A stretch of 64,000 nt of DNA from a plasmid. The stretch is from sequence record NZ_CP118109.1; one strand, 5' to 3'. Positions 32,305 through 60,508 of the stretch are shown piece after piece (position 1 is the first letter of the stretch; every line of letters begins with the position of its first letter). The notes beneath the pieces are model-generated. The model searched no databases. It saw only the letters and a program-made list of their open reading frames with translations, and was not told where the DNA came from. The position numbers and the translations under genes are program-made.

Positions 32305-32305
32305 C

Positions 32306-35066: not shown

Positions 35067-35079
35067 AGGAGTTTTTTCG

Positions 35080-36215: not shown

Positions 36216-36417
36216 GGCTGCCTACCTCTTTCCTCTGGGGGAGATATAAACCTTGTTTATACTAATAGAATTAGATCGGGATTGGACAGTAGGTCTTGAC
36301 TGGTACAAGCACAGTAAAGGTGTACGATTAGGCTATTTCGCCATACACATCGTTTTTGTAAAGCATTCTGAATTTGTAAATAGATTAGCCAAGCACTATG
36401 CAGAGGAGCGATAACAG

Positions 36418-36675
36418 ATGAGCCAAGAGGGGCAAGTGATTAAACATTTAGTTGAACAAATGAAGGCACTTAATGCAGATAATGCACACACGCAGCTTCA
36501 AAACATTGAACAGACTCAAGGACTGACTGTTGTTATATCTATTTATGACAATTTAAAGCCGGCACACGAAGTATTGGATGAATTATATGAATGGGCGGAA
36601 GAAAACAACGAAGAAGTAAAGGAACTCATTGAGCAACTGGAGCAAGATATGAGTTGGAACGCTGAGACGGATTGA
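36418..36675 (+). CDS. hypothetical acidic protein
   Basis: ORF track. Confidence 0.45.
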   Translation: MSQEGQVIKHLVEQMKALNADNAHTQLQNIEQTQGLTVVISIYDNLKPAHEVLDELYEWAEENNEEVKELIEQLEQDMSWNAETD

Positions 36676-36710
36676 GGCCATCAGTCTCTTTCCCTGGGAG
36701 GGGAGAACAC

Positions 36711-36875
36711 ATTGAAGAATTTTGACATATACGAGTATTTAGCTGACTTTGTTAGTGATGGGAAATCAAAAGACGGAGATGAAATTCTTATAAACATTGA
36801 TGGTCGGAAGATATGTGTAGTTACTCCTCAATTTAAGGAAGAAGAAATCAGTTTCAAGATTGTAAAACGGTATTA
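36711..36875 (+). CDS. small hypothetical protein (54 aa, TTG start)
   Basis: GGAGGGGAGAACA RBS-like block directly upstream; hand translation uninterrupted. Confidence 0.3.
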
Positions 36876-36999
36876 GGGAGGGGAGAACAACAGATGATTA
36901 AAAATCAGCGAGTTGTAGTTGAGTACTTAACCAATACCGGACATGACTTTTTTAATAAAGAAACAAAGGAAAAACGAAAGTATGGTGGAAAGGTAGACT

Positions 37000-37332
37000 A
37001 TGAGTAAACAAGAGCACCTTATATCAGCAGATAAGCTGAAGGAATGGTTTTTAAATAATGACAAAGCTGAACCTTTTATGGAATCTGAGTATTCTGGTGA
37101 TGCATTCGTAGACCTTTGCGCAGCAATTGATTCAGGATTGCTCAATCCTGATCCAGTACCCACCATTAAGCCGGGAGATAAGGTGCGATACCACGGATGG
37201 CAATACAATCTATCTAATGTTGCAACAGTAGATCATTTGATAGAGAGAAATGGCACATATGCAACCATAATACATGACGAAGCACCTTATATTGTTCCAC
37301 TTGAACATTTGGAGGTAGTAAAGGATGAATGA
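37000..37332 (+). CDS. hypothetical protein
   Basis: ORF track. Confidence 0.45.
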   Translation: MSKQEHLISADKLKEWFLNNDKAEPFMESEYSGDAFVDLCAAIDSGLLNPDPVPTIKPGDKVRYHGWQYNLSNVATVDHLIERNGTYATIIHDEAPYIVPLEHLEVVKDE

Positions 37333-37552
37333 AGAAGTAGAAACAATCGGTGATTACCTTGAGCGAATGATTACAGAAGGTTACATTGACAAAGACTGTC
37401 GCCCGATAAAGTGTCACATCTGTGAAAGCACTGATATAGAAGGACGTAATTATATGTACGAAGATTTCGCGCTTATCATTGAATATGAAATGTTCTGCAA
37501 GCCTTGCAATGTATCAATTGGGCGATGGTCTTATGGAAACTGGGAGGCGTAA
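37325..37552 (+). CDS. zinc-ribbon protein
   Basis: C-x2-C ... C-x2-C; ORF track. Confidence 0.45.
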   Translation: MNEEVETIGDYLERMITEGYIDKDCRPIKCHICESTDIEGRNYMYEDFALIIEYEMFCKPCNVSIGRWSYGNWEA

Positions 37553-37555
37553 AAA

Positions 37556-37792
37556 TTGAGTAAAGAGAAAAAACTCTTATATAGGGTATATGGTCAAAGC
37601 AATAACACTACAGCAAAGGTGTCAGTTGATAAAGAGATGACACTTGAAGAATGCAAAAGCGCTGCTGCTAATGAAGTCTTTAAAACCACATATCACCAAT
37701 TAGACAAACTTGTTGCTCTGCCAATTGGAACTAAAGATGATTATGATCGAGGAATTATTCTTTTCTGTCCAAGGTGCGGGGGAACCTGTTGA
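37556..37792 (+). CDS. hypothetical protein with C-terminal CPRCGGTC
   Basis: ORF track. Confidence 0.45.
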   Translation: MSKEKKLLYRVYGQSNNTTAKVSVDKEMTLEECKSAAANEVFKTTYHQLDKLVALPIGTKDDYDRGIILFCPRCGGTC

Positions 37793-37881
37793 GGATATGG
37801 GTGCTTCGGAAGCGAATTTTGATTGCTACCAATGTGATGCCAGTATTTATGTAGATATAAGTGTATCCCAGGAGGAGGAGT

Positions 37882-38115
37882 ATGAATGACTTTCTCTTAT
37901 TTTATAACAGCATAAGTCATAATTTTTCCTGGACGCTTGATATTTACCACTCAAGCATAGTGGGCTGGATTATAACCATTGGCTATAAACCTGCACATGA
38001 AATGCATGGCCAAAATGTAATTCATGTTCAGGATGATTGCGATATGCAGCTCTGCTTTGCGAAAGCGCAGATTGCGCTTAAAGAGTGGCTTTGTGAAAAT
38101 AATGGCGGCTATTAA
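37882..38115 (+). CDS. hypothetical protein
   Basis: CAGGAGGAGGAG RBS before ATG 37882. Confidence 0.4.
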   Translation: MNDFLLFYNSISHNFSWTLDIYHSSIVGWIITIGYKPAHEMHGQNVIHVQDDCDMQLCFAKAQIALKEWLCENNGGY

Positions 38116-38127
38116 GGGCGGTGAATT

Positions 38128-38370
38128 ATGAAAGACAAGGACGAAGTGTGCGAAGATCACGGCCGGCTTCGTTGTGATATATGCGCCTATGTTGAAGAAT
38201 TAAGAGAGCGTGCTGAAAAAGCAGAGCGTAAAGAGGAGAAGCTTAAAGAGGCGATAGGGCATGCTATTTCTCAATACCCTCAGTTCGATTCTAGTGCTAT
38301 TTATGGGATAATGATGCACGATTACTTGGTATCTATTATGGCCATTCTATATCCCGAAAATAAGGAGTGA
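38128..38370 (+). CDS. hypothetical protein
   Basis: ORF track. Confidence 0.45.
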   Translation: MKDKDEVCEDHGRLRCDICAYVEELRERAEKAERKEEKLKEAIGHAISQYPQFDSSAIYGIMMHDYLVSIMAILYPENKE

Positions 38371-39050
38371 ATTATATAGTGGCATACAATAACGGCAACG
38401 GAGGAAAACGCTCCAGCTTTGATCCATCTAAATATGAGACTGTTAAACGAAGAAAAGAACGCTTACGTATTGATTATCCCAATTCCATCATTTATCCAAT
38501 GCAAATATCTGGCGTTAACTATGCTAATCATTATGTAGTCTATATTTCCTTAATCTGGCTGGATAAGGAAAAGCGCATCCTTTCACCCGAAGCGGTTACT
38601 GCAGTAACAGAACTATGTAAGTCCGTTACTCCGGATAACGCAGCGATCGTTGCTTCAAGTATTGGTCTGCTCTTAGGTGCAGATTCTATCGGCTATTCTC
38701 TTTCTATCGCCGGTGGTCGCCAAGCGGATCAATATGCTTGGGTAGAAAACTGTGAAGAGTCGGCTAGTGGCCGTGCTTTAGATAATCTTGGCTATCACAG
38801 CGGCAGCGCAAGCCAAGAGGAAATGCAAAAAGTAATTGAGACAGAAAATATAGCAAAAAGACGCATTGATATTGAGAGTCAAATCACGTTTTATTTGCAA
38901 CAAATGTACAATATGGATATCAATGTCCAGAATGTCTTTAACCAATGTGCGAGCGCAGTAGGCCACAGCTTTAATTATCTAACCGAATTGGACATTGATG
39001 AATTGCAAACTGTTCATAAAATCGTTAAGAGCGCCATGCCAGCGGCATAA
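38367..39050 (+). CDS. hypothetical protein
   Basis: ORF track. Confidence 0.5.
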   Translation: MNYIVAYNNGNGGKRSSFDPSKYETVKRRKERLRIDYPNSIIYPMQISGVNYANHYVVYISLIWLDKEKRILSPEAVTAVTELCKSVTPDNAAIVASSIGLLLGADSIGYSLSIAGGRQADQYAWVENCEESASGRALDNLGYHSGSASQEEMQKVIETENIAKRRIDIESQITFYLQQMYNMDINVQNVFNQCASAVGHSFNYLTELDIDELQTVHKIVKSAMPAA

Positions 39051-39137
39051 TTCGACACAATTCGTATATCCTATATCATATGAAATATTGACCTCAGCCT
39101 CATGCTTATTTATAATCATGACTGAGGAGGTGTACAT

Positions 39138-39650
39138 ATGGGTGCACAAGATTTAATGAGAGCGGCCGCGAACGCAAGTGGGCAGAGCCGGCTTCAGCCG
39201 CAAAAACCGAAAATGGGAACTGCAGCAGCTCAGCCACCAACACCTGAGCCAGAACAAGAAGAAAGCAATATTCGAGAGGATATTATTGAAACTGCCCAAT
39301 CTCAGGTTGCAGCAACACGACAGACTGAACAGAGGGTAGTTCGTCCACGTCTTCCTAGGCAAGAGACAAGCACTGCCAAGCATCGGTTTGTTAAGCGTCC
39401 AGAGCTGCCTGACGATCTCTATCGTGAAGTTCCTTCAACCAGCAGTTATCAAATCTATAATAAAGATATTGATAAATTTATTAAAAATTTTTCATCGGAA
39501 AATTCTCAATATCGTGGTGGGGCTAAAATCACCCCTTCTATGCTGATAGAAGCTGTTCTAGATTTCACTTTTTACGATATGGATATCCGACCGGATGGCT
39601 ATATTGATCTCGAAGAGCTACGTGAACATATGCGCAGCAAATTGAAGTAA
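39138..39650 (+). CDS. hypothetical protein with disordered N-terminus
   Basis: TGAGGAGGTG RBS. Confidence 0.5.
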   Translation: MGAQDLMRAAANASGQSRLQPQKPKMGTAAAQPPTPEPEQEESNIREDIIETAQSQVAATRQTEQRVVRPRLPRQETSTAKHRFVKRPELPDDLYREVPSTSSYQIYNKDIDKFIKNFSSENSQYRGGAKITPSMLIEAVLDFTFYDMDIRPDGYIDLEELREHMRSKLK

Positions 39651-39662
39651 AACATTGCATAA

Positions 39663-39676
39663 TGTAAGACGTTACA
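39663..39676. promoter_or_regulatory. dyad motif TGTAAGACGTTACA (copy 6a)
   Basis: Recurring motif family. Confidence 0.5.
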
Positions 39677-39686
39677 TTTTTCTGCC

Positions 39687-39700
39687 TGTAACGTCTTTTA
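39687..39700. promoter_or_regulatory. dyad motif TGTAACGTCTTTTA (copy 6b); TATAAT at 39718-39723
   Basis: Recurring motif family. Confidence 0.45.
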
Positions 39701-39753
39701 TTATGCTCAAAACATGCTATAATAGCTTATGTTACTGAATGGAGGCCCATACT

Positions 39754-40218
39754 ATGGAGCTTATGAAAGCTTATTTATATAATCAATTCCCTTTTCAAAC
39801 TACGGACATTTCTGCAAGAACGATTTCAAACCTGCTGACTTGCAATTGGTTTGAGGATGATCGAAAATCGGCAGCTTATACAATATTGCATCGAAGACTG
39901 TTAATCAGTTCACAGTGGTACAAGATTACATTACGCTTTAAAAAAGAAGGTCCTGAATTATTGTCATTAGATACGCCTGCCCCTTTTATGGTTGTTCTCA
40001 GTGAAGTGAAAGAGGCAGACAATAAAAATTCTCGTTTTGTAGATAAGCAGGTTTATCATTCTAAAACTGTTGGCACTGTATCAGGATACCTTGAGAAAGG
40101 TATACCTGCAGAGCTAATTGATGCAATGATTGAAGAGTTCAGGATCAGTGTGCAATACGGCATTCCTATGGTTGAAATCGCTTCTGCTAATAGTAAACTT
40201 TCAGAAATACCATTTTGA
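39754..40218 (+). CDS. hypothetical protein
   Basis: GGAGG 39741-39745 then ATG 39754. Confidence 0.45.
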   Translation: MELMKAYLYNQFPFQTTDISARTISNLLTCNWFEDDRKSAAYTILHRRLLISSQWYKITLRFKKEGPELLSLDTPAPFMVVLSEVKEADNKNSRFVDKQVYHSKTVGTVSGYLEKGIPAELIDAMIEEFRISVQYGIPMVEIASANSKLSEIPF

Positions 40219-41495
40219 GGAGGAGATTGATTATGAGTTTTCCATCACAAATTAACGCTGCCTTGTCTGGACATACGGCAAGGCGTTTACATAGTTTTCT
40301 TGAGTTCCCTGAAGGCAAGTCAATTACTGCCCTTGATTTTAAAGCTTTTAATGGCAAGACATTAGATGAATTAACTTACTTTGCGAGTGAACGCTACCTA
40401 TATGGCGCCGAAGCAAGTGAGTATATGGCGAAGGAAGCCAGTACTTTCTTTGAAAGAGTTGCCCTTTCTCATTACAAGAGAGAGATGAAGATAAGTAATG
40501 ATGCTTTTTCGCTAGCAGTTGTTGATCCTTATATTCACCCGCAATTCATTGAAGATATCTTTATGTCCTATGATCCTTTTCAAATCCCTGACTTTGAGGC
40601 TGAGATACGGCAGCAACAACAATCGCTTCAATCTACTGCAGATAATTATCTCGATCTGAATCAGCTTGAAATGACGGAGGAAGAAGTTGAAAAGCGCAAA
40701 GTAGATATGGAAGAGCGGATTCAGAAAGCAATCGAAGATAGAAACATTGCATATCGTAAGGCATTACGTGAACAAGAGAAACGTACTTCTGCCTTGCGTG
40801 ATGATAAGCTCCTTTTAACGAATGCTGCTCGTTATTTAAAGCCTGGCGGCATTCTTATCATGCTTACTCCGAAGGAATTTATTGATGCACATATTTCATT
40901 TAAGTTGGCCAACGCCTTTGAAGATATTCAAATTTTCCGCCTGGATGATAGCGAATATGAGAAGCACAGAAAGTGCGTTATTATCGCTAAGAAACGCCTA
41001 AGAACAGAGAAGCAAGATACGCTCCCTTACGAGATCATGCAGACGAAATACAAGCCTTACAAGGATATTCCGGTTATCTCTGTACAAGAGAAACCTCTAT
41101 ATAAAGTTCCTGAAGGAAAGAAAGAAGATGTAGTCAGCTTCCGGATCGGACCGATTACACCAGAAGAAGTTCAACAAGTCATGAGAAAGTCTATGCTCGT
41201 CGAAAACTATGCTGTTCAGCATGGAATAACCCTGGATAATATCACACCAAAACCACCCACGCAGCTGCATAAAGGACATGTATCATTAACCCTTGCAAGT
41301 GGACTGCTAAACGGATATATCGGCACTGGTGCGGATCGCCACTTGGTTAAAGGATCGGTTGTCAAAAAGAATAGTGAGTTTACTGAAGAGGAAGAAACGG
41401 ATCGCGGAACTGAGATTAAGACCGTAGATCGTGAATACTTCCATATCGGAATCAAATATTTAGATCGGCACGGTGATTTTCACAAATTATTATAG
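40215..41495 (+). CDS. hypothetical protein (weak SAM-methyltransferase-like LKPGGILIM motif)
   Basis: ORF track; translationally coupled to downstream giant helicase. Confidence 0.4.
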   Translation: MRRRLIMSFPSQINAALSGHTARRLHSFLEFPEGKSITALDFKAFNGKTLDELTYFASERYLYGAEASEYMAKEASTFFERVALSHYKREMKISNDAFSLAVVDPYIHPQFIEDIFMSYDPFQIPDFEAEIRQQQQSLQSTADNYLDLNQLEMTEEEVEKRKVDMEERIQKAIEDRNIAYRKALREQEKRTSALRDDKLLLTNAARYLKPGGILIMLTPKEFIDAHISFKLANAFEDIQIFRLDDSEYEKHRKCVIIAKKRLRTEKQDTLPYEIMQTKYKPYKDIPVISVQEKPLYKVPEGKKEDVVSFRIGPITPEEVQQVMRKSMLVENYAVQHGITLDNITPKPPTQLHKGHVSLTLASGLLNGYIGTGADRHLVKGSVVKKNSEFTEEEETDRGTEIKTVDREYFHIGIKYLDRHGDFHKLL

Positions 41496-41506
41496 GAGGT
41501 TGTGTC

Positions 41507-44500
41507 ATGGCCACAAGAGTATCGGACAAACTCTTTGAACTCGTCCTGCATAATAAAGGTCGTGGACCTAGAATCAGTACTTTTATTGATTTGATCGTCC
41601 TCGAAAGAATAGGTAGAAGCGCCAATAATATGTATTTGGTTAATACCATGAATGCAGGACCGAAACAAACACTTTTAGCTTATGAGATGAATGAGCATAA
41701 AAGCGGAACGATCTCTCCATTAGGTGAAGGGGTAAGCCGGGATGAAATCATGAACGTCTTTGTTCCAGAGAAAGACTTTTATGACTCATCGGAGCAAAAG
41801 ATTGATGATATCGTTAACACTCTTTATGTAGCAAAAGCTGCCAAGAATGATATCAAGAAGAAGGAAATGCGCATTTTAGAAAACAAGCAACGCGTTGAAT
41901 CAGGCATACAGCCACTAGGGCCACATCCTGAACTTATCTTAGCTTGGGATGGCGATATCTTCTCAGAAGTGTATCGAGTACTGAATGATCGATATAATAC
42001 GCCAATGCTTCCTGAATGGAAGGAAGAGATCGTGCAGGCTTGTTATGATCATGGTCTCCTGACTAACCTTGAAGTAAAGAGCTATGGTAAGGATTATGAT
42101 CTTGAAGCTGCTTTGCTTCGAATCACTGAAGAGAACCTGGAAGCCATTATTTCAGAAGGTATTCGGTCTTATTCCATGCCATTCGCTATTCTGGACGATG
42201 GTCCAACTGAAGAAGAATCTGTACTCAAGAACTGCACGACGTTGGATGTGTATCTCGAGAACTTTGCAGGAGAGCTTGGCCAGCGGATTCAGGAAAACTC
42301 TGTATTGCGCTTTGATCCTACAAAGGAAGAGCATCATCGTTCTTTATATCATGCGAATCTTCATGCAAACACCAAAGGTGTTACCGGATTGTTCCCGCCA
42401 CAAGCAGATGTCGTTATGGGCTGTGCTAATACGATCAAAGACGATGAGGATGACTACGTATTTGTCGTCGGTGAGATGGGATCTGGTAAATCACCAATGG
42501 GCGCCCTAATTCCTTATGTTACTCATGCTATTCGATCAGGCATGGAGAAACCTAAGCCTTATCGTGCACTCGTATTTGTGCCAGCAATAATGGTCGAAAA
42601 ATGGAAGCGGGAGATAGAGGAGCGTATTCCTGATGTGAAAGTATATCAAATCAATAACTGGCGGGATGTACATCGCTTAAGAAATATGCCGTATCGCCCG
42701 ACAGAGATCGAATACTATGTCATGAGTTCTGATGCAGCAAAGCAGACATATCCGATTGAACCGGTTATGGATTTCCGCAAAGGATATGTCAAAAATCATG
42801 ACTATGAAGAAGTCATTGCACAAAAGAGAGCGGGTAAGAAAATCCGCATTCGTATGACCAAAGAAAATTCCTTTAGAAATGGTGCAGCGATAACACGAAC
42901 TGCTATTGGCCCTGAAGCTATGTATTGTCCTCAATGCGGACAGCCGATTAAGAAGACGAAAGAGAAGTACTCTGATGAGCATTACTTCCAGCTTCGCCGC
43001 GGTAAAGACAAATGGGCTTGGAATCAAAACCGTGAAAACTACCGCTGTCGCAATAAAGTCTCAAAAGATGCTCTTCCTAAGCATCAGCGTCTTAAGGGCG
43101 ATTCTCCTGATCAAGAGTGCGGCTTTATTTTTTGGAGTGCTAAGAAGCTCCCTGCTCGCTCTCTCGAGAGAAAGGTATCTCCTGCATGGTATCTGAATAA
43201 ACATCTTCGTCGTGGATTCTTTGAATACTTGATCGCAGATGAGGTTCATGAATACAAGAGTGGAGACTCGGATCGTGCGAATGCCTTCGGTCAGTTGATC
43301 AATCATACAAATAAGCAGATTTTGCTGACAGGTACACTTCTCGGTGGTATGGCAAGAGATATCTTCTATCTTCTGGCTAGACTGGACGCGAAGAAGCTGA
43401 AATTGGAAGGTATTACGTATGATGATGAAAGCCGCTTCGTTGAGAACTATGGCGTATACGAACGTTCTATGACAGAGTTCACCGATGATCGTAAGGGCAA
43501 GAAGAGAAAGAAGCAGTTGCCTGGCGTTTCGCCACTTGTATTCCCGCGCTTCTTAATGAGTAACTGTGCCTTTATCGAGCTGGGTGACCTAGGCTATGCA
43601 CTGCCGCCGTATCGTGAGATTCCAATGTTCATCGAGATGGAAGACGAGCATCGCAGAATGTATGACGAGTTGGAAGAAAACATCATGGATGCGATGGGGC
43701 AAGGCGGGATGAAGCATCTTTCCTCGTATATCACAAAGCTCTATCAGTATGCAGATATGCCATTCAAACACGAGCCGATCACATATCTTGATGAGCATGA
43801 CAAGGTTAAGGAGCTATGTCAGCCGTATAATTTCCCTGAAGATTACACTCCAAGTAAATATTATGCGCTCCAGAGCCTTCTGGAGGAGCAGATCGAGGAA
43901 CGCGGCCGTAAAGTACTTGTCTATGGACGTTTTACTGGCGGAGATAATGGAGTCGATACGTGGCTGTATGAGCGGCTTAAACAGGATGGCTATAATGTTG
44001 GTATCCTACGTTCATCTGGAACCTATGATGGAATGAAGATGCCGAAGCAAGAGGATCGGGAAACCTGGCTGCGTAAGAATATGGAACGCTATGATTGGGA
44101 TGTTCTTGTAACCAACTCTCGTCTGGTCGCTGTTGGTCTTGATCTGCTTATGTTCCCTCATATTCATTTCTATCAAATGGATTACAGTGCTTATAACTAT
44201 ATGCAGGCTTCACGCCGATCTTGGCGGATTAAACAGACTGAGGAAGTTGAAGTTAGTACGTCGGTCTATCGCAATACAATCCAGGCAGATGTGCTAGAAA
44301 GCATTGCGAAGAAGATTGATGCGGCAATGGCTCTGCAAGGCAAGTTCTCTGAAGAGGGTCTTCGTGCAATGGCAGACTCTGGCGATGGCATCAATGCACT
44401 GGCTAAGAAGCTTATGAGTGAAGGAAGACTGGATAATATCAATTCCATTGAAGATCGATGGAAGCGAATCAATGCTTCCTATGAGCAGCTGCAGAACAGC

Positions 44501-44752
44501 TCCTATGAGGGTTATGACTCTTATGAAATGAATCCACTTGGTATTGATAAAGTGCGTGAGATTCAGAAAGGCCTTGTTAATAAGATGCGTATTGATGTGG
44601 CTTCCGGCAAGATTACTCAGAACGATCTAAACAGTTATATGGATCATATCGAAGAAATCTTCCGTGTCGTTGAGGATGTGCGTGAGTATAACAAAGGGCT
44701 TCGTAAGAACGATAGAATCGTGGAAGGACAAGGCGCTTTTGCCTTCTTTTAA
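41507..44752 (+). CDS. large SF2 (DEXH/SNF2-like) helicase with inserted zinc ribbon
   Basis: VVGEMGSGKS (Walker A), LIADEVHEY (DExH), LLTGTLLGG (motif III), QASRRSWR (motif VI), CPQCG...C-x-N-K. Confidence 0.6.
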   Translation: MATRVSDKLFELVLHNKGRGPRISTFIDLIVLERIGRSANNMYLVNTMNAGPKQTLLAYEMNEHKSGTISPLGEGVSRDEIMNVFVPEKDFYDSSEQKIDDIVNTLYVAKAAKNDIKKKEMRILENKQRVESGIQPLGPHPELILAWDGDIFSEVYRVLNDRYNTPMLPEWKEEIVQACYDHGLLTNLEVKSYGKDYDLEAALLRITEENLEAIISEGIRSYSMPFAILDDGPTEEESVLKNCTTLDVYLENFAGELGQRIQENSVLRFDPTKEEHHRSLYHANLHANTKGVTGLFPPQADVVMGCANTIKDDEDDYVFVVGEMGSGKSPMGALIPYVTHAIRSGMEKPKPYRALVFVPAIMVEKWKREIEERIPDVKVYQINNWRDVHRLRNMPYRPTEIEYYVMSSDAAKQTYPIEPVMDFRKGYVKNHDYEEVIAQKRAGKKIRIRMTKENSFRNGAAITRTAIGPEAMYCPQCGQPIKKTKEKYSDEHYFQLRRGKDKWAWNQNRENYRCRNKVSKDALPKHQRLKGDSPDQECGFIFWSAKKLPARSLERKVSPAWYLNKHLRRGFFEYLIADEVHEYKSGDSDRANAFGQLINHTNKQILLTGTLLGGMARDIFYLLARLDAKKLKLEGITYDDESRFVENYGVYERSMTEFTDDRKGKKRKKQLPGVSPLVFPRFLMSNCAFIELGDLGYALPPYREIPMFIEMEDEHRRMYDELEENIMDAMGQGGMKHLSSYITKLYQYADMPFKHEPITYLDEHDKVKELCQPYNFPEDYTPSKYYALQSLLEEQIEERGRKVLVYGRFTGGDNGVDTWLYERLKQDGYNVGILRSSGTYDGMKMPKQEDRETWLRKNMERYDWDVLVTNSRLVAVGLDLLMFPHIHFYQMDYSAYNYMQASRRSWRIKQTEEVEVSTSVYRNTIQADVLESIAKKIDAAMALQGKFSEEGLRAMADSGDGINALAKKLMSEGRLDNINSIEDRWKRINASYEQLQNSSYEGYDSYEMNPLGIDKVREIQKGLVNKMRIDVASGKITQNDLNSYMDHIEEIFRVVEDVREYNKGLRKNDRIVEGQGAFAFF

Positions 44753-44764
44753 TCTATGGACCTA

Positions 44765-44914
44765 ATGCAACATTATCTTGAAAAGAAATACTTGATCGGT
44801 GAAGCATGGATGTGCCGCCTTCGATGTTATGAATGCGGCAGGTCCTACCATTACTTTGAGTATATTAAAAAATATTGCTGTTTTTCATGCTATTCAAAAT
44901 ATGCTGCTGTATAG
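44765..44914 (+). CDS. small FCS/TRASH-type zinc-ribbon protein (49 aa)
   Basis: CYECG-x13-CCFSCYSKY; weak RBS; below ORF-track cutoff. Confidence 0.3.
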   Translation: MQHYLEKKYLIGEAWMCRLRCYECGRSYHYFEYIKKYCCFSCYSKYAAV

Positions 44915-44940
44915 CTAGCAAGCAAAAGGAGAGATATTCT

Positions 44941-45414
44941 ATGTCGGCTGTAAAGATTCCAGAGGGAGCAATACGCTGCTCCGTTTACGAAGCATTTCGT
45001 GCAATGCGAGAAGAAGGAAAAACGATAGTCGCTGTATTGCAAGATGAAGACAATATTAACTACGCTGCTCACTGTTTCTATCCGTGGGAGATCGACAATG
45101 AACGAGGATACAGGTGCTCATTTTCTGAATTATCTGAGTACATTGAAAAAGGTAAATGGCATGTGCTTCAGGAGAAGAGCGCAGCTCCAGACGAGCGCAT
45201 CTATGATCAAGATTATATTAACGTTTATCTTGTCGGAGGCATTGTGGATGGTGTTTCGAAATTTGATACAGAGAAGGAGGCTATGGAAGACATTCGTGAG
45301 CGATATTCTCAAGATCCTTTTGATCCTGACGAAGATGATGCCACAGTATGGAAGCGAGAGCCCGATGGCTCCTATGAGGTCATCCATAATGAAGACGCGG
45401 TGGAGATAGCATAA
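44941..45414 (+). CDS. hypothetical acidic protein
   Basis: AAAGGAGAG RBS; ORF track frame. Confidence 0.45.
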   Translation: MSAVKIPEGAIRCSVYEAFRAMREEGKTIVAVLQDEDNINYAAHCFYPWEIDNERGYRCSFSELSEYIEKGKWHVLQEKSAAPDERIYDQDYINVYLVGGIVDGVSKFDTEKEAMEDIRERYSQDPFDPDEDDATVWKREPDGSYEVIHNEDAVEIA

Positions 45415-45416
45415 AT

Positions 45417-45551
45417 ATGGAAGCCGTTTTAGTAAAGAAATGTTTTCACTGCGATGATGAGATCTCCAGCAATAAACATAAAAACTTTTGCTCGGATTCT
45501 TGCAAATATTTGTATGCTGGCAATGAAGATGGGGAGGAGAGAGAGTGCTGA
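45417..45551 (+). CDS. small FCS/TRASH-type zinc-ribbon protein (44 aa)
   Basis: GGTGGAG RBS; CFHCDDEISSNKHKNFCSDSCKYLY. Confidence 0.35.
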   Translation: MEAVLVKKCFHCDDEISSNKHKNFCSDSCKYLYAGNEDGEEREC

Positions 45552-45778
45552 TGCAGATCAAGGCAAAAAGATGGATCAGAGAGAGATTTAAACCTTGGAT
45601 AAACAAGAATAAGGGGTCTGTGGAAATATGGTTTACAGCCAACAATAAAGCACACGCCCTTGCATTTGAGTGTGCCAAGCCTATATTTTGGTTTCCGAGG
45701 ATAGATAGGAGGCCAAGACTCATCCGATTCGGCTTTCTACTGTTTTCAATAATATATTACAAAAGAACAATCGAATAA
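45545..45778 (+). CDS. hypothetical basic protein
   Basis: ORF track. Confidence 0.35.
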   Translation: MLMQIKAKRWIRERFKPWINKNKGSVEIWFTANNKAHALAFECAKPIFWFPRIDRRPRLIRFGFLLFSIIYYKRTIE

Positions 45779-45791
45779 GGGGGAATCTTGG

Positions 45792-46685
45792 ATGGCAAAA
45801 GCCAAGAAGCGCCAGGACCTGTATCAAATGGATCGTTTTCTTCCGGAGCAGCTCATAAAAGTGCAGTCTAGCATTCAAAGCTATGCTTCAGCGGTAAACG
45901 GTCTTCCAATGAATCATTCGGAGGTATTTGAGAAGAGGGGGTGGCTTTTGCCATTCCTATTCTCCTTCGATGATTTGCTTTGGGGTAGATGGAACTACTG
46001 GCATGAGATATTGCAGAAGAAAACGATCGAAGGCAGTGGGCCAATTCCTCAGATTGAATGGAAAGACCGAGGCAGAGAAGGTGTCGAAGAGACTCAAAAG
46101 ATGCTGCGCACTTGTCTCGATCATCACGAATCAACGATTGATCACTTTGCAGATTGGCTGATGTGGGGTCTAGCGGCTTCACCGGAAGACCAAAAGCTCA
46201 ATATATCACCAGAGCTGAATGAGCATTACTATAGAAAGTTTGATATTTTTTTAGTTCAAAATTATCCGACCGATTACTTGTCTCAGACGCTCTCAGAAGA
46301 AACTGGAAAAGGTTATAAGTCTGGATTGGGCTACTTCCCTACACCATTTAATATAACTTGCATGATGACCAAAATGACCATGGGTGGAGATCCCGAAGAG
46401 GAAAAGCGCCAGACTGTATACGATGGCTGTGTAGGCTGCGGAGCTACCATACTTCCAGCATCTAATCATACTCTTCGAATGTTCGCCCAAGATATCAGCC
46501 AGATTGCTGTTAAGCTCTGCAAGATTCAAATGTATTGGTATGCTCCATGGTATGCTTTCCATCCACAATGGCTTAAGGGCTTTGAGCAAAGCAAAACAAT
46601 TTCTCTTGTTCCTGCATCACCTGGTAAGAAGATTCTCGAAGGACAACTTGCATTTGATTTAGACTGGGCAACCACGCCCGTATAA
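45792..46685 (+). CDS. N6-adenine DNA-methyltransferase-like domain protein (HsdM/N6_Mtase fold) with non-canonical motif IV
   Basis: GLGYFPTP...DGCVGCGATIL matches N-6 DNA methylase G-x-Y/F-x-TP ... D-x-x-C-G-x-G; NPPY replaced by APWY. Confidence 0.45.
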   Translation: MAKAKKRQDLYQMDRFLPEQLIKVQSSIQSYASAVNGLPMNHSEVFEKRGWLLPFLFSFDDLLWGRWNYWHEILQKKTIEGSGPIPQIEWKDRGREGVEETQKMLRTCLDHHESTIDHFADWLMWGLAASPEDQKLNISPELNEHYYRKFDIFLVQNYPTDYLSQTLSEETGKGYKSGLGYFPTPFNITCMMTKMTMGGDPEEEKRQTVYDGCVGCGATILPASNHTLRMFAQDISQIAVKLCKIQMYWYAPWYAFHPQWLKGFEQSKTISLVPASPGKKILEGQLAFDLDWATTPV

Positions 46686-46713
46686 AAAACTAACTTATTG
46701 GAGGAATTTTATT

Positions 46714-47019
46714 ATGCATAACCCTGAATTGGTAGTCCAAAAACTAGAAAAACAATCGGTGATTTCTCAAGATCAACTACAAAATCTAATTGATACATTT
46801 CCATATAACCAAAACGAAGGCTTTGTTCCATTTGCTGCTGCGTCTGATGACTTCTCTCTGTTTGGTTTTATGCGTAGTGAAATTGCAATGAGCGAGCGCG
46901 TTAACGAAGGCATGCTTTCAGCTTTTCAAGAAATGGTTCTACAAGAGGGAGCGAAACTTCCCGCAGGAGCCATTAAGCATATTTCTCCATTTGGCATTCT
47001 AACAAACATCATTGGGTGA
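46714..47019 (+). CDS. hypothetical protein
   Basis: ORF track; GGAGGAA RBS. Confidence 0.45.
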   Translation: MHNPELVVQKLEKQSVISQDQLQNLIDTFPYNQNEGFVPFAAASDDFSLFGFMRSEIAMSERVNEGMLSAFQEMVLQEGAKLPAGAIKHISPFGILTNIIG

Positions 47020-47050
47020 CGGCCGTCTTACGACGGCGAGGGCTTTTTGG
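47020..47050 (+). terminator. intrinsic terminator (GACGGCCGTCTTACGACGGCGAGGGCTTTTTGG)
   Basis: Hairpin + U-tract after stop. Confidence 0.7.
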
Positions 47051-47064
47051 AAATGAGGTGCTTT

Positions 47065-47298
47065 ATGGATAAGAATTACTATTTCCGTTTTATATATAAA
47101 TCAAAGAATTATAGATGGGGGATCTACCTTCACACTCTTTCATATTGGAAGATAAAAAGAAAAGAGATAGATCCGATTCCTCTATTTCGATTGAATGTTG
47201 TTCGTCCTTATAAATATTCGGACGACTCCAATCAGTTTATCGCTATTGGCACCTATATATTTCCCTTTGTTATTCGTAAACTCAAAATGAAAAAATAG
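47065..47298 (+). CDS. hypothetical basic protein
   Basis: ATG after GAGGTG. Confidence 0.35.
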   Translation: MDKNYYFRFIYKSKNYRWGIYLHTLSYWKIKRKEIDPIPLFRLNVVRPYKYSDDSNQFIAIGTYIFPFVIRKLKMKK

Positions 47299-47311
47299 TG
47301 GAGGCGTAGAA

Positions 47312-48652
47312 ATGACTATGACACTTGAACATGATATTGATTTAGATAAGAAGGTTGACCTGCAGCTGGCTGATGATGCGAATAAGGTAAGAAAGATAAC
47401 AATTAAGACTGCTGAGCTATTAAAAGCAGTGAGACGAGCTGTATCCATTGTTAACCATAATCATTCAACTCTTGTATTGCAAAATATATTCTTTGCTACT
47501 ACAGATAACGGAATTATTTTACGAGCTGTAAACGACAGCTTTTCTGTAGAAACAACAATCGATCCGGCACATTGCGTGATTGAAGATGATCCGAGATCTG
47601 TTTTGTTTCCAGCTAAGCGTCTTTTAGATATTGTCAGTAAAATGAGCGGAAAGAATACGACGATCTTTATTCGGGATAATTTCATTCGAATCAAGTCAGG
47701 TCGAGCTAATATGGATATTGGAGTCCAGGATGCAGACGAGTTCCCAAAACTGCCTCAGATCAAGAAAGGAAACACTTTCGAAATCGCTGCTGATGCATTG
47801 CTTGATATGTACACTCGTACAGTATTTGCAACCTCTAAGCTTGAAAGCATGCCTGTTTTGCAGGGCGTACTACATGACATTGAAGATCAAAGATTCCGCT
47901 GTATTGCAACGGATCGTCATCGTTTTGCGCAGGTCTATCATCCGACAACTATTGAGTGTGAGCCAATGCGTGTCAGCGTTCCTGCAATAACAATCAATGA
48001 AGTTATGAAGCATCTGAAAGAAAAGAAGGCTGATACGATCAAGGTTACAGTCAAAGACACTCGTGTAGTATACGATATGAACGATACTGTCCTTTACTCC
48101 CAGGTATTAGAAGGCACATATCCGGATACAAATCGAATCATCCCTACTGGAGCTAAGGCTACTGTGACAGTTCCTAATTCAGAGTTCCTAGGCGCAGTGA
48201 AGCGGGCAGCTATCTTTTTGGATGATTCTAATTCTTCTAAAATAACAATCATGATTGATGGCGAAAAGAACCAGATGCGCATTCAATCACTGGATAGTGA
48301 TGAAGGCACAATGTTAGAAGATATGGTAACACTAAAAGGAGAGGGCGGGTTTGCTTCATCCACGATGAATGGTCGTTATCTGCTTGAGTCCCTAAGCAGG
48401 ATTGGTGGCACTGCTCATGTTGAGATTAAGATGACATCAACAATGCCTTTTCTCTTAAGAGAAGCTAATGCTCTTGAAGGTAATGTAAATGTCGTTGTGC
48501 CTGTTAAGCATAGACTTGATAGCTCGAAATCTATCGAAAACTTTACGTCAAATTATAACGAAGAAGAAGCTGATCCTTTTGCTGGTCGTGCAGAGGAATA
48601 CGCTGAGCAGCAAGCTTCTGAGGCTACTGAAAGCCAAGAAGGAGCAGCTTAA
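47312..48652 (+). CDS. dnaN: DNA polymerase III beta sliding clamp (DnaN-like) with acidic C-terminal extension
   Basis: Three-domain length; ATDRHRFA (DnaN ATDGHRLA), domain-I N-terminal pattern. Confidence 0.75.
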   Translation: MTMTLEHDIDLDKKVDLQLADDANKVRKITIKTAELLKAVRRAVSIVNHNHSTLVLQNIFFATTDNGIILRAVNDSFSVETTIDPAHCVIEDDPRSVLFPAKRLLDIVSKMSGKNTTIFIRDNFIRIKSGRANMDIGVQDADEFPKLPQIKKGNTFEIAADALLDMYTRTVFATSKLESMPVLQGVLHDIEDQRFRCIATDRHRFAQVYHPTTIECEPMRVSVPAITINEVMKHLKEKKADTIKVTVKDTRVVYDMNDTVLYSQVLEGTYPDTNRIIPTGAKATVTVPNSEFLGAVKRAAIFLDDSNSSKITIMIDGEKNQMRIQSLDSDEGTMLEDMVTLKGEGGFASSTMNGRYLLESLSRIGGTAHVEIKMTSTMPFLLREANALEGNVNVVVPVKHRLDSSKSIENFTSNYNEEEADPFAGRAEEYAEQQASEATESQEGAA

Positions 48653-48687
48653 TCAATTTATCTTAAAATAACGCTTGATTTTAGCTT

Positions 48688-48701
48688 GTAACGTGTTATA
48701 A
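48688..48701. promoter_or_regulatory. dyad motif TGTAACGTGTTATA (copy 7a)
   Basis: Recurring motif family. Confidence 0.5.
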
Positions 48702-48709
48702 TTCAAAAT

Positions 48710-48723
48710 GTAATGCGTTACAA
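48710..48723. promoter_or_regulatory. dyad motif TGTAATGCGTTACA (copy 7b, near-perfect palindrome)
   Basis: Recurring motif family. Confidence 0.6.
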
Positions 48724-48750
48724 GCTCATGCTAATAGGGGGCTAATAACG

Positions 48751-48969
48751 ATGACAGCAATGACAGTTGAAGATATGTATGCAATGAAACCAGTAGGCAG
48801 TGTGATTCCTTTCTTTAATTTCACCGGATATAAATCAGGTGATTCTGTGCAGGTGGCTGACGGCGCTTATGACTACGACAACAAGGTGTATGTCGTAGAA
48901 GGAAGCCGAATACAGCATATCTGGCATAATGAAGAGAATCAAATGGCATTTGAATTTGAAGGGATTTGA
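48751..48969 (+). CDS. hypothetical protein
   Basis: ORF track. Confidence 0.45.
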   Translation: MTAMTVEDMYAMKPVGSVIPFFNFTGYKSGDSVQVADGAYDYDNKVYVVEGSRIQHIWHNEENQMAFEFEGI

Positions 48970-49208
48970 AGTACATGAACTTCGACGTTCAGCGTTCAAT
49001 ATTTGCAACAAATGCATTCGCTTCAGAATTTCCGGAACAGCATACTCAGCTCTGGAAAGAGTTTGAAGAAAAGGTTCCACAGGTAAATCGGATTGGCTAT
49101 TATGGCGCAGATAATGTGGCTTATATAGGCTGGCTCCGTAGCACGAAGAATGCACTCTTTAATTCATTTTTGCAATCCAATATTGCAACAAAGCATTTTG
49201 ATGCATGA
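48966..49208 (+). CDS. hypothetical protein
   Basis: ORF track. Confidence 0.45.
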   Translation: MKYMNFDVQRSIFATNAFASEFPEQHTQLWKEFEEKVPQVNRIGYYGADNVAYIGWLRSTKNALFNSFLQSNIATKHFDA

Positions 49209-57048: not shown

Positions 57049-58092
57049 TTAACGAAGCAATTGAAGAACTGCTTGTGGTTGTTGGTTTGCTTGAGCCAAC
57101 ATTGCTTGAGCTGCTTGGGAAAGAATCGAGTTCTTAGTTTGCTCAACCATTTCTTTCGCCATGTCAACGTCACGAATACGGGATTCAGATGCTGTCAGGT
57201 TCTCTGCTGTTGTACCCAGGTTATTTACTGTGTGCTCCAAACGGTTTTGTACGGAACCCAATTTAGAACGCTCAGCAGATACGCTCTCGATCGCTGCGTT
57301 AATTGTAGTGATTGCTGTATCAGCGTCTTCTTGGTTAGAAATGTTGATACCAGCGTTTACTTTTGCTTCATCAGCATATGCTTCGTCAACTTTGACAACC
57401 ATTTTGTCGCCATCGTAGTAACCAGCTACAACAACATCATCTTCGGTTGCCTTTCTAGTTGTACCATTACCACTGCCATCGTCAATGTCGTCTCCGACAT
57501 TAACTGCTTCTTTAAAAGTAAGTGTAGTTGTTCCGGCAGTCAAAGTTGCAGTAGTGCCATCGTTATCAGATGTGTACTCTGTGCTTACTTTCAGCGCTTC
57601 AGCGCCCATGTCACTAATTGAAAGACTAATGCTTTGACCTGCATTTGCTCCGATTTGGAATGTAACATTTTCAGCAGAACCATTGATCAGCTTTTTCGTA
57701 TTGAACTCAGTGTCTGTAGAGATACGAGTCAATTCTTCAGCTAATTGGTTTACTTCTTTTTGAAGCTCTGCGCGGTCGGAATCCGTGTTTGTGTCAGATG
57801 CTGATTGAACTGCCAGCTCACGCATACGTTGCAGGATAGAATGAGATTCATTCAATGCACCTTCAGCTGTCTGGATCAGTGAGATACCATCTTGAGCGTT
57901 ACGAGAAGCTTGCTCAAGACCGCGGATTTGTCCACGCATTTTTTCGGAGATTGCAAGACCCGCTGCGTCATCACCAGCACGGTTGATGCGAAGACCGGAA
58001 GACAATTTCTCCATGTTTTTTCCTTGTGCAGAGTTAGCTGCGCCCAGGCTGCGTTGAGTGTTAATCGCCGCAATGTTGTGATTGATAATCAT
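57049..58092 (-). CDS. hag: flagellin (Hag/FliC family)
   Basis: N-terminal [16 protein letters not shown]...[30 protein letters not shown] and C-terminal [14 protein letters not shown]...[25 protein letters not shown], near-identical to B. subtilis Hag D0/D1; GGAGGT RBS. Confidence 0.95.
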
Positions 58093-58150
58093 TTTTAACC
58101 TACCTCCATGTAGTTACGTCAAGGAGAGTCCTTTCTCCTTGCGTTAAGAT

Positions 58151-58348
58151 TTAGAGCGGCAGTCCATTTTGTCTGCAGAGCTCTTTTTGTTCGTCTGACA
58201 AGATCTCTTCCCTGAGTATCTTAACGTCATTCGGAGCAGTTATTTCTAACTTTGGATTGCCGTAATCATCGACCTTCACTTTAATATGTATGGAATTGCC
58301 GATAATGATCGACTCACCCGCTCTTCTGTTGACTGTTAATTTTCCCAT
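58151..58348 (-). CDS. csrA: carbon storage regulator CsrA (flagellin translation regulator)
   Basis: MGKLTVNRRAGESIIIGNSIHIKV...ITAPNDVKILREEI matches CsrA (LVLTRKVGESIVIGDDIEITV...APKEV-V-REEI); directly upstream of hag as in B. subtilis. Confidence 0.8.
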   Translation of the reverse strand: MGKLTVNRRAGESIIIGNSIHIKVKVDDYGNPKLEITAPNDVKILREEILSDEQKELCRQNGLPL

Positions 58349-58382
58349 GCCGACTACCAACTTCCCTATTGTGATAGTTATT

Positions 58383-58409
58383 TTATCGGCGGGATCCGGA
58401 AATAGTTTA
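58383..58409 (-). promoter_or_regulatory. sigmaD (sigma-28, flagellar) promoter TAAA-N15-GCCGATAA driving csrA-hag
   Basis: Minus-strand TAAA (58409-58406), 15-nt spacer, GCCGATAA (58390-58383) vs consensus TAAA-N15-GCCGATAT. Confidence 0.65.
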
Positions 58410-60009: not shown

Positions 60010-60260
60010 TATCTAAGCGGATGATTGGATGTTTTCAGTTGTCCGCTTCTTTGTTTTTCGATTTTTATCTACCTTCTTCCCTCTCATTTTTACCGCCTCC
60101 GTTTGATAGTTTCTACTCTTTTTATACCCTATTTGCTAGGACGAACACAAGTCTTTTGTCGATTCACTTATCCACAGCTCTGCCTATTATTTATATATGG
60201 TGGAGAAAAGATTTTATTAAAGAAAGTACTTCTTTGCGTTAAATTTTTTAACCCCCCTCT

Positions 60261-60463
60261 TTAAAATTTTTAACGTAATAGCCTTTCGTTAAAATTTTTA
60301 ACGTAATGTTTTTGCCTAAAATCGTTACGTTAAAAATTTTAACATAAGGGTTATCCACAGATCGATCTACTACGTTAAAATTTTTAACGTAATGAGCTTC
60401 AACTCTCAAATTCGTTACGTTAAAAATTTTAACGTAAGAGATAACCACAAAATCTGTGGATAA
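60261..60463. repeat. origin-like array: five palindromic iterons (TTACGTTAAAA(A)TTTT(T)AACGTAA) plus two perfect DnaA boxes in inverted orientation
   Basis: Iterons at 60261, 60287, 60323, 60371, 60412; TTATCCACA 60351-60359; TGTGGATAA 60455-60463; AT-rich. Confidence 0.65.
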
Positions 60464-60477
60464 CTTTTCAATAAAAA

Positions 60478-60508
60478 AAGCAGAAGGATGTCTCCCTCTG
60501 CTCTCTTT
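60478..60508. terminator. bidirectional intrinsic terminator between rep gene and iteron array
   Basis: AGCAGAAGG-loop-CCCTCTGCT with T-tracts on both sides. Confidence 0.55.

Follow-up and report, generated by a model that had tools for sequence, protein, structure and literature searches.

A putative sigmaD-controlled csrA-flagellin cassette on a probable jumbo phage-plasmid of Paenibacillus urinalis, with a possible role in flagellar remodelling

A csrA-flagellin pair on a Paenibacillus replicon

A 64,000-nucleotide stretch of the sequence record NZ_CP118109.1 (hereafter the window, whose coordinates are used throughout), which belongs to a replicon of 214,846 bp deposited as a plasmid of Paenibacillus urinalis and not as a phage, carries on its minus strand a gene for a flagellin (hag*) preceded by a gene for a small protein of the CsrA family (csrA*), the asterisk marking in both cases the copy borne by a mobile element. 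An earlier note on this DNA, made from the sequence alone, had described the pair as a full-length flagellin with termini almost identical to those of Bacillus subtilis Hag, a CsrA of 65 amino acids (aa) just upstream and a sigmaD-type promoter motif ahead of both genes, all of which proved to be present where the note had placed them. The whole cassette forms one compact minus-strand unit that runs from 58409 to 57008, and its parts are as follows:

58383..58409, minus strand: predicted sigmaD (sigma-28)-type promoter, with TAAA (-35), a 15-nt spacer and GCCGATAA (-10), lying 34 nt 5' of the csrA* ATG
58349..58382, minus strand: 5' leader of csrA*, containing a GGA (AAUAGGGAAGUU)
58151..58348, minus strand: csrA*, encoding a divergent CsrA-family protein of 65 aa
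58093..58150, minus strand: intercistronic leader of hag*, 58 nt with two sites
58116-58144, minus strand: leader hairpin 1, with the core stem AAGGAGA/UCUCCUU, a 6-nt loop AAGGAC and its GGA at 58129-58131
58100-58113, minus strand: leader hairpin 2, a small one that shows the Shine-Dalgarno AUGGAG, with its GGA at 58105-58107
57049..58092, minus strand: hag*, encoding a flagellin of 347 aa
57008..57032, minus strand: terminator-like hairpin directly 3' of the hag* stop, an 11-bp stem followed by UUUUAU
56935-56948, minus strand: second terminator from the pattern scan, some 100 nt (~100) further on

Compared with the sigmaD consensus (TAAA, a spacer of 14-16 nt and GCCGATAT), the element at 58383-58409 matches 11 of 12 bases with a 15-nt spacer and stands 34 nt from the ATG. 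The exact string TAAA-N15-GCCGATAA appeared in none of 100 shuffled sequences; once a single mismatch is permitted the motif turns up in 33 of 100, so that such a looser match is not rare. A relaxed pattern scan of the 64 kb returned this position as the sole site. The exact match, the position, the uniqueness in the window and the conservation of the motif in all seven cassettes described below support its prediction as a sigmaD-type promoter. Pattern scans of the interval between csrA* and hag* gave no sigma-70-like promoter, no sigmaD-like promoter and no terminator, and a second promoter within csrA* or the spacer was rejected on these scans. A Hin-type invertible promoter was likewise rejected, no inverted repeats flanking the promoter. 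As for the first gene, a 142-aa open reading frame is an in-frame upstream extension of csrA*, and the start giving 65 aa agrees exactly with the protein in NCBI.

The leader of hag* folds at -18.3 kcal/mol (z=-4.17), and none of 200 shuffles was equally stable. Its two hairpins, each presenting a GGA in the loop, keep the Shine-Dalgarno region that the earlier note had recognised in the 58-nt spacer, and their layout parallels that of the leader of hag in the host (CCAC-AUGGAC-GUGG and AGGGAGGA). In the hag transcript of B. subtilis it is CsrA that occludes the Shine-Dalgarno (PMC6529632). The terminator hairpin at 57008-57032 folds at -16.9 kcal/mol (z=-3.2 for the RNA fold against shuffles). 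The 5' leader of csrA* folds no better than shuffles (z=-0.2), and its GGA (AAUAGGGAAGUU) is a weak candidate for an autoregulatory site.

CsrA* keeps the RNA-binding residues and lacks two FliW contacts

CsrA* matches the Pfam family CsrA (PF02599) with E=1e-12 and 48.2 bits (cutoff 27) over profile positions 2-50 of 53, and is 100% identical to WP_274338653.1/WDI05031.1, 'carbon storage regulator (plasmid) [Paenibacillus urinalis]'. It shares just 32% identity with the CsrA of the host chromosome (65 aa versus 83 aa), which as a tblastn query does not recover it at E<10. On the other hand, CsrA* aligns gaplessly to the E. coli CsrA 1Y00 (phmmer) and scores higher against E. coli and other gamma-proteobacterial CsrAs regulated by small RNAs (sRNAs) than against the FliW-bound Geobacillus CsrA of 5DMB. 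The RNA-binding residues of E. coli CsrA, reportedly worked out by Mercante et al. in 2006, are L2, L4, R6, R7, V40, V42, R44 and I47, and the aligned residues of CsrA* are L4, V6, R8, R9, V42, I44, R46 and I49; equivalents of L2, R6, R7, V40, R44 and I47 are kept, and the changes L4V and V42I are conservative. The R44 equivalent is moreover invariant across the CsrAs of all seven cassettes. CsrA* is predicted to be an RNA-binding protein of the CsrA family.

A different picture emerges for the contacts with FliW. In B. subtilis, D41 of CsrA forms a salt bridge with FliW K123 and its charge reversal D41K abolishes inhibition, and N55 is invariant among FliW-partnered CsrAs and needed for FliW binding (bioRxiv 10.1101/2020.07.02.184341). 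Both residues are present in the CsrAs of B. subtilis and of the host chromosome. In CsrA*, position 41 corresponds to K43 and position 55 to L57, and the seven cassettes read K/K/K/R/L/R/K at the former and L/L/A/E/E/E/Q at the latter. As D41 and N55 are changed in all seven, CsrA* is predicted to bind RNA yet ignore FliW. The proposal of the earlier note that such a cassette could titrate host FliW would then hold for the flagellin, which could do so, but not for CsrA*, which is 32% identical to the host protein and has neither D41 nor N55. The note was right that fliW is lacking: tblastn searches for FliW homologues found none in the window, nor across 200 kb of its relative from B. halotolerans introduced below, and the window holds no fliS or any other flagellar gene. 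In the host chromosome, fliW and csrA overlap.

Hag* combines a host-like core with a divergent surface

Hag* matches the Pfam domains Flagellin_N (E=6e-47) and Flagellin_C (E=1e-29), both at full length, and is 100% identical to WP_274338652.1/WDI05030.1, 'flagellin (plasmid) [P. urinalis]'. The protein searches suggested by the earlier note thus lead for both genes to P. urinalis plasmid proteins, and the next-best match of Hag* is the chromosomal flagellin of P. urinalis, at 74%. Identity to B. subtilis Hag is 65% overall, with termini nearly invariant. Compared with the host copy, the N-domain is 85% identical in amino acids, with a ratio of non-synonymous to synonymous divergence (dN/dS) of 0.056 at a synonymous divergence (dS) of 2.2, and the C-domain is 89% identical, both domains together giving dN/dS values of 0.06-0.10; the central domain, which forms the surface, is only 40% identical, with a dN/dS of 0.29. 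Synonymous divergence between hag* and host hag is saturated (dS 0.7-2.2), so that hag* is no recent pickup, and a recent copy of the host gene was rejected on these values. Both csrA* and hag* are under purifying selection and both are functional.

In B. subtilis, FliW protects flagellin residues 11-34, 50-72 and 240-260 (PMC6070490), and these regions fall within conserved blocks of Hag*. The overall pattern is the signature of a flagellin that would still fit the chaperones, the export gate and the filament lattice of the host while displaying a different surface. The conserved FliW-protected regions, together with a fliS chaperone gene in the related cassette of Paenibacillus sp. TCA20, are the basis for predicting that Hag* is destined for export, and filament assembly through flagellar type III export is predicted as well.

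The host keeps its own canonical locus on the chromosome, in the order flgM-flgN-flgK-flgL-DUF6470-fliW-csrA-hag-flaG-fliD-fliS-fliT. There, the sigmaD-type motif sits between csrA and hag, whereas that of the cassette precedes csrA*, so that the two genes form one operon. The reading of the earlier note, that the cassette repeats the csrA-hag arm of the host, is therefore too simple, although the gene pair, the promoter ahead of it and the absence of fliW were correctly described there. It had also warned that the region could be chromosomal or a chimera of the assembly; the distinct chromosomal flagellin (74%), its own canonical locus and the saturated dS show that plasmid and chromosomal DNA were not joined in the assembly.

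The cassette recurs in unrelated elements

The promoter-csrA-hag layout was found in at least seven elements, which represent two or more phage types:

Cassette 1: this window
Cassette 2: Paenibacillus sp. TCA20 (BBIW01000029), a ~78%-identical sister element with fliS after hag
Cassette 3: a Logan contig (L018), its CsrA 58% identical to the CsrA* of the window
Cassette 4: a ~200-kb element of B. halotolerans, with the PGAP labels "carbon storage regulator" and "flagellin Hag"
Cassette 5: a ~200-kb element of B. licheniformis, NZ_CP035189, with the same PGAP labels as in B. halotolerans
Cassette 6: the IMG/VR contig L017, 123.9 kb
Cassette 7: "Bacillus phage EZ-2018a", a 118-kb record

Three more ~200-kb plasmids of B. 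licheniformis/B. paralicheniformis have an annotated hag, as judged by that annotation only. Looking for the pair in other phage genomes, as the earlier note had recommended, thus gave a positive answer that includes EZ-2018a and the IMG/VR contig L017. The note had also held flagellin plus CsrA in a phage to be highly unusual; the pair is indeed unreported in the literature, but with seven elements it is not unique.

All seven cassettes have a TAAA-N15/16-NNCGATA(T/A) motif 31-47 nt upstream of csrA*, and none of them repeats it in the interval to hag*. They also share the conserved Shine-Dalgarno ACAYGGAGGUA ahead of hag* and a GGA motif 25-40 nt upstream of this Shine-Dalgarno. In the three Paenibacillus copies the GGA occurs in a hairpin whose stems differ yet pair, namely AAGGAGA/UCUCCUU in the window, AGAGAG/CUCUCU in TCA20 and GGGAGA/UCUCCC in L018; the coding sequence of csrA* contains the upstream GGA site in the copies from Bacillus and Logan. 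The csrA* leaders of the Bacillus type present a GUCA-GGGAYGAA-UGAC hairpin plus an AAGGAGG Shine-Dalgarno. Distances from the csrA* stop to the hag* start are +58, +63, -4, -11, +6, -11 and +21 nt, the two genes overlapping in three of the seven.

The cassette is a mobile accessory module, since a close collinear element of P. rhizovicinus has no cassette. Moreover, L017 and the B. halotolerans element share only the ~1.25-kb cassette (with 89% identity in CsrA*), which in L017 is flanked by an integrase, an amidase endolysin, a Gam-like protein and a sigma factor, and the cultured phages of the 0305phi8-36 type have no flagellin. Between the window and TCA20, csrA* is 97% identical, with a dN/dS of 0.025, and Hag* is 61% identical (347 versus 258 aa); the flagellin slot is swapped, with csrA* and the promoter left in place. 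The TCA20 locus (L002 3022-3387, BBIW01000029) has a short flagellin of 258 aa without the outer domain, followed by its own fliS, and ~2.2 kb there are without counterpart in the window.

Wider searches added nothing to the three known copies of the Paenibacillus-type cassette. A scan of genome contigs with an alignment of Paenibacillus-type CsrA* found only unrelated CsrAs, from metagenome-assembled genomes of Pseudomonadales and Heliobacteriaceae, and a scan of JGI metagenomes returned 62 CsrA loci, all at most 49% identical (<=49%), with no new cassette; those adjoining flagellin or FliW looked like ordinary chromosomal fliW-csrA arrangements. A scan of viral contigs with CsrA* retrieved seven csrA genes with no flagellin nearby, which are unrelated to the cassette; they lie on the IMG/VR contigs L010-L016, with 32-58% guanine plus cytosine (GC), and encode CsrA homologues 41-48% identical to CsrA*. 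As csrA is annotated in Pondi and HelliStehle, two Escherichia phages, as well, phages evidently carry csrA outside the cassette and on its own.

The neighbourhood of the Bacillus cassettes offers some further observations. Bacillus elements carry an LXG polymorphic toxin with its YezG immunity protein a few kb from the cassette (L004 1473-5296, L005 2452-4980), a Rap (aspartate phosphatase) gene is found near the cassette in B. halotolerans, and a RapH-like gene lies immediately upstream of it in EZ-2018a (L001 4402-5547). The LXG and Rap genes point to an accessory gene cluster for host behaviour around the origin region.

The carrier is most likely a jumbo phage-plasmid

The earlier note took the carrier for a phage. 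Matches to Pfam and PHROG revealed no virion gene in the window, which encodes helicases, a primase, RecA/UvsX, UDG, ThyX, DnaN and thymidylate kinase, as well as an E2/ThiF pair, an MrpR-type recombinase and an initiator-like protein with DnaA_N and helix-turn-helix (HTH) domains. Three regions define the element:

808..49208, plus strand: arm for replication, recombination and nucleotide metabolism, ~40 genes collinear with 0305phi8-36-like jumbo phage-plasmids (PHROG and Pfam matches)
60160..60480: plasmid-type origin region, with five palindromic iterons of ~22 nt (ACGTTAAAATTTTTAACGTAAT) 28-45 nt apart and TTATCCACA DnaA-box motifs
60509-61501, minus strand: DnaA_N/HTH initiator-like gene, adjoining the iteron cluster

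About 40 genes (~40) of the window occur in the same order in the B. halotolerans element NZ_CP114067, a 203.6-kb circular "plasmid" (146->91 kb, with 29-61% identity), and the same arm is collinear with that of P. rhizovicinus NZ_CP048288, a 228.8-kb "plasmid" (30-70% identity). Both of these elements have genes for the large subunit of terminase, the major capsid protein, virion structural and tail proteins and ParM. The capsid protein from B. halotolerans shares 47% identity with the 0305phi8-36 major head protein and 61% with its counterpart in the Moorella phage MTATph1, and relatives of the terminase of the B. halotolerans element occur, among the matches listed, on many contigs of 195-217 kb from several Bacillales genera. 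Collinearity with elements carrying virion genes is thus the reason to read the carrier as a phage, most likely a jumbo phage-plasmid of the 0305phi8-36 type, and it is on this ground that the reading of the earlier note can be kept.

The backbone is shared with 0305phi8-36 and jumbo myoviruses such as KLEB27-3, WH1, Edson and the Moorella phage MTATph1, and the PcrA-type helicase of the window is 37-39% identical to those of the 0305phi8-36-related jumbo myoviruses. The difference is that these are cultured phages without flagellin, whereas the cassette occurs on members deposited as plasmids; among the latter, ParM is annotated in the B. halotolerans and P. rhizovicinus members and the origin-like region with iterons and DnaA boxes was seen only in the window. 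This region (repeat families D1-D3) lies ~2 kb from the cassette and looks like the origin of replication of the element in plasmid mode, and in the elements of B. halotolerans and B. licheniformis, too, the cassette has a homologous initiator-like gene as its neighbour. The DnaA_N initiator as query found no relative in the genome-contig scan, and near-identity DNA searches of the locus against phage and plasmid collections gave nothing useful.

Other genes of the window deserve a brief mention. At 54605-55738, 1.3 kb downstream of hag* and also in TCA20, lies an MrpR-type tyrosine recombinase that probably serves plasmid multimer resolution and is not an obvious invertase switch, the cassette promoter having no flanking inverted repeats. 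A protein of the Prok-E2_D (E2-like) family, a 141-aa open reading frame and a ThiF/E1-like protein stand in a row at 9770-11707, a ubiquitin-like conjugation module whose homologues in the B. halotolerans element are non-contiguous. The stretch 40215-44752 holds a methyltransferase-like gene of the DUF6094 kind and, after it, a gene for a SNF2/ResIII helicase-like protein of 1081 aa; the two adjoin dnaN in all three collinear elements and could be an anti-restriction or DNA-modification pair. Finally, the ThyX (thymidylate synthase dependent on flavin adenine dinucleotide) encoded at 27247-28833 is unusually long, with 528 aa and Pfam matches in two stretches, and the elements of B. halotolerans and P. 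rhizovicinus encode ThyX proteins of similar length.

Comparison with known systems

Full-text literature searches found no paper on a csrA-flagellin pair in phages or plasmids of Firmicutes. The closest precedent is FRphi, a flagellin-remodelling prophage of Enterobacter with a tldR-fliCP locus (Wiegand et al., bioRxiv 10.1101/2023.11.30.569447; Walker et al., Nat Microbiol 2026, PMC13418256) that turns down fliC of the host and remakes its filament, to the advantage of host motility, immune evasion and colonisation of the gut, and whose flagellins were termed the first known prophage-encoded ones (PMC13418256). Both systems have a temperate phage flagellin with conserved D0/D1 and a divergent outer domain, a sigma-28/FliA-type promoter and a dedicated flagellin repressor alongside. 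They differ in that the FRphi repressor is TldR, an RNA-guided nuclease-dead TnpB that blocks transcription at the host fliC promoter, whereas the cassette has a CsrA paralogue predicted to act on translation, a Gram-positive host of the Bacillales and a jumbo phage-plasmid as its probable carrier; and where the outcome in FRphi is replacement of the host filament, for the cassette it is deduced, with repression of host hag being predicted. The trait by which an FRphi-type locus is recognised, a flagellin with divergent outer domain beside a flagellin regulator, is present here, the carrier being probably a phage and two other cassettes standing in viral records. No gene of the size of TnpB/TldR was found near the cassette: the open reading frames of 58.4-60.5 kb are below 180 aa (<180), those at 58290-58790 and 59482-60009 match no Pfam family, and the larger genes flanking the cassette are the MrpR-type recombinase and the DnaA_N/HTH protein.

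A second parallel comes from the hin-csrA-tldR-fliC loci of the Clostridia Oscillibacter and Flavonifractor, where CsrA binds a GGA stem-loop in the 5' untranslated region of an alternative fliC, and for whose csrA-associated TldRs the authors found no phage association (PMC13418256). Like the cassette, these are accessory flagellin loci with their own csrA; they differ in being chromosomal and in having TldR and a Hin-invertible FliA promoter, whereas the cassette is apparently phage-borne and has no TldR, hin or inverted repeats. With the Hag-FliW-CsrA switch of B. subtilis the cassette shares the protein families, the type of sigmaD promoter and a two-site CsrA operator before hag (PMC6529632; bioRxiv 10.1101/2020.07.02.184341; PMC6070490). 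The host arrangement differs by the presence of fliW, an 83-aa CsrA with D41 and N55 and a promoter between csrA and hag; moreover, csrA of the host is translationally coupled to fliW (PMC6529632), whereas hag* of the cassette closely follows or overlaps csrA*.

Repressors paired with alternative flagellins are also found in Gram-negative bacteria. Salmonella FljA is a post-transcriptional repressor of the resident flagellin, co-transcribed with the alternative flagellin FljB. The S. Typhi linear plasmid pBSSB1 carries fljB:z66 (PMC1876496). The likeness lies in the alternative flagellin with its repressor and, for pBSSB1, in a flagellin on an extrachromosomal element; the differences are that FljA is unrelated to CsrA, the flagellin comes first, Hin inversion operates at a chromosomal locus and the hosts are Gram-negative. 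As to mobile CsrAs, many Pseudomonas megaplasmids carry csrA, and RsmQ is a CsrA/RsmA homologue on the Pseudomonas plasmid pQBR103 (PMC9928087). RsmQ resembles CsrA* as a translational regulator of this family that, borne by a mobile element, redirects host behaviour from motile to sessile; it differs in having no paired flagellin and no flagellar promoter, and in working within an sRNA-antagonised Rsm network. The RsmQ paper makes no mention of phages, Firmicutes, flagellin or FliW (PMC9928087), and a 2026 Nucleic Acids Research paper on CsrA variation has nothing on phage CsrAs or mobile CsrAs of Firmicutes.

A proposed function and its rivals

We tentatively favour flagellar remodelling, i.e., a lysogenic conversion of the filament, as the function of the cassette, giving it a chance that falls somewhat short of even. 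The single sigmaD-type promoter in front of csrA* and hag* would restrict their transcription to cells in which the late flagellar programme is on. The D0/D1 core of Hag*, responsible for assembly, export and chaperone binding, is host-like, and the protein would thus be exported by the machinery of the host and built into its filament, where a surface domain unlike that of the host would alter the filament surface. CsrA* would act as a FliW-blind repressor of flagellin mRNAs that present a GGA in a hairpin and another in the Shine-Dalgarno, one that FliW freed by secretion could not switch off. The host hag mRNA, monocistronic and with both sites, would be its obvious target, whereas ribosomes translating csrA* would probably open the hag* sites and hand translation on to hag*. 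The flagellin of the element would be favoured and that of the host held down, biasing filament composition to Hag*, in the manner of fljB-fljA in Salmonella and of the prophage tldR-fliCP module. A stricter version, in which FliW-blind CsrA* silences the host flagellin mRNA, Hag* escapes through translational coupling, lysogens swap their filament outright and the ~1.25-kb unit moves between unrelated Bacillales phages, is possible but, as a whole, rather doubtful. That the cassette manipulates the Hag-FliW-CsrA circuit of the host, as the earlier note proposed, is a reasonable idea, the detailed reading given there being supported only in part.

The same parts could be assembled in other ways. 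Hag* may soak up FliW and so free host CsrA, with CsrA* adding a repression that FliW cannot relieve, and carriers in the sigmaD-ON state would then stop making filaments, which might keep out flagellotropic phages, spare resources or promote a sessile life, as RsmQ does. The cassette without fliW, the CsrA* without D41 and N55 and the CsrA sites in both flagellin leaders all agree with such a shut-off of motility; ectopic overexpression of CsrA inhibits motility in B. subtilis (PMC6529632), and RsmQ turns Pseudomonas from motile to sessile (PMC9928087). Nonetheless, a mere sponge for FliW needs neither a whole polymerisation core held at a dN/dS of 0.06-0.10, nor a diversifying surface domain (dN/dS 0.29), nor the fliS added in TCA20; because all three are in keeping with a flagellin bound for export and assembly, we regard the shut-off as unlikely. 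We think it equally improbable that the extra flagellin is itself the selected cargo and csrA* only limits its translation from a multicopy element, sparing the cytoplasm, any effect on host hag being incidental. For this dosage control speak the CsrA sites directly before hag*, and also before csrA* in the Bacillus-type cassettes, which suggests autoregulation, and in B. subtilis the cytoplasmic level of Hag must be kept within narrow bounds (PMC6529632). But host CsrA could already control hag* through the same sites, making a second CsrA unnecessary, and the loss of the FliW-contact residues in all seven cassettes points to selection for escape from host control. A chance capture of a chromosomal csrA-hag fragment with no function on the element is easily imagined as a single event, the two genes being neighbours in the host chromosome; we give it hardly any credence in view of proteins conserved despite a saturated synonymous divergence from the host copy, a promoter moved upstream of csrA and a cassette conserved in seven elements and transferred between unrelated phages.

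Another rival concerns the carrier, which could be an ordinary megaplasmid with an accessory flagellin, like the linear plasmid pBSSB1 of S. Typhi. The deposition as a plasmid, the iteron and DnaA-box origin with its initiator gene, the 64 kb without a virion gene and a search with the terminase of the B. halotolerans element, whose best 120 matches did not include the 214,846-bp contig, all agree with it. Against this stand the ~40 genes collinear with two elements of ~200-230 kb that have terminase, capsid, tail and virion proteins and ParM, the capsid protein from B. halotolerans with its 47% identity to the one of 0305phi8-36, and the presence of the cassette on a viral contig of IMG/VR and in a genome deposited as that of a phage, and we deem a plain megaplasmid quite improbable. 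Still, several points weigh against flagellar remodelling by a phage, and the missing terminase match is one of them, virion genes on the 214,846-bp replicon being a prediction. Both canonical CsrA sites are retained in front of hag*, so that repression by CsrA* should extend to its own partner; the escape through translational coupling is a conjecture, and the 58-nt spacer of the window is, in our judgement, the loosest coupling of the seven. Blindness to FliW is deduced from two residues defined in B. subtilis, and promoter activity, RNA binding and FliW insensitivity are all predictions from sequence. The Paenibacillus-type cassette is moreover rare: a pattern search of 185,579 species-representative genomes found none, and among 1.84 billion representative proteins only one full-length relative of the Paenibacillus-type CsrA* appeared (Logan, 58%). 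Finally, superinfection exclusion and the exclusion of flagellotropic phages were tested for the TldR system and found unsupported (PMC13418256).

Implications

Phage systems that remodel flagella by means of a dedicated repressor entered the literature only in 2023-2026, from Enterobacteriaceae and with an RNA-guided repressor of transcription; what would be new here is a repressor of another type that acts post-transcriptionally, in Gram-positive hosts and on jumbo phage-plasmids. If flagellar remodelling is indeed its function, the csrA*-hag* pair would be a protein-based counterpart of the TldR-FliC system, and, should flagella serve the carrier phages or their competitors as receptors, it would amount to a receptor conversion comparable to that of the O-antigen. 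The cassettes also supply natural "D41K/N55X" variants of CsrA in a compact two-gene module. Moreover, they would add a trait of lysogenic conversion to the poorly studied jumbo phage-plasmids of ~200 kb that databases file as plasmids. Altogether, the cassette suggests that phages of Gram-positive bacteria may have independently arrived at flagellar remodelling, rewiring Hag-FliW-CsrA, of all post-transcriptional checkpoints on flagellin the best understood, by means of a CsrA without the FliW handle.

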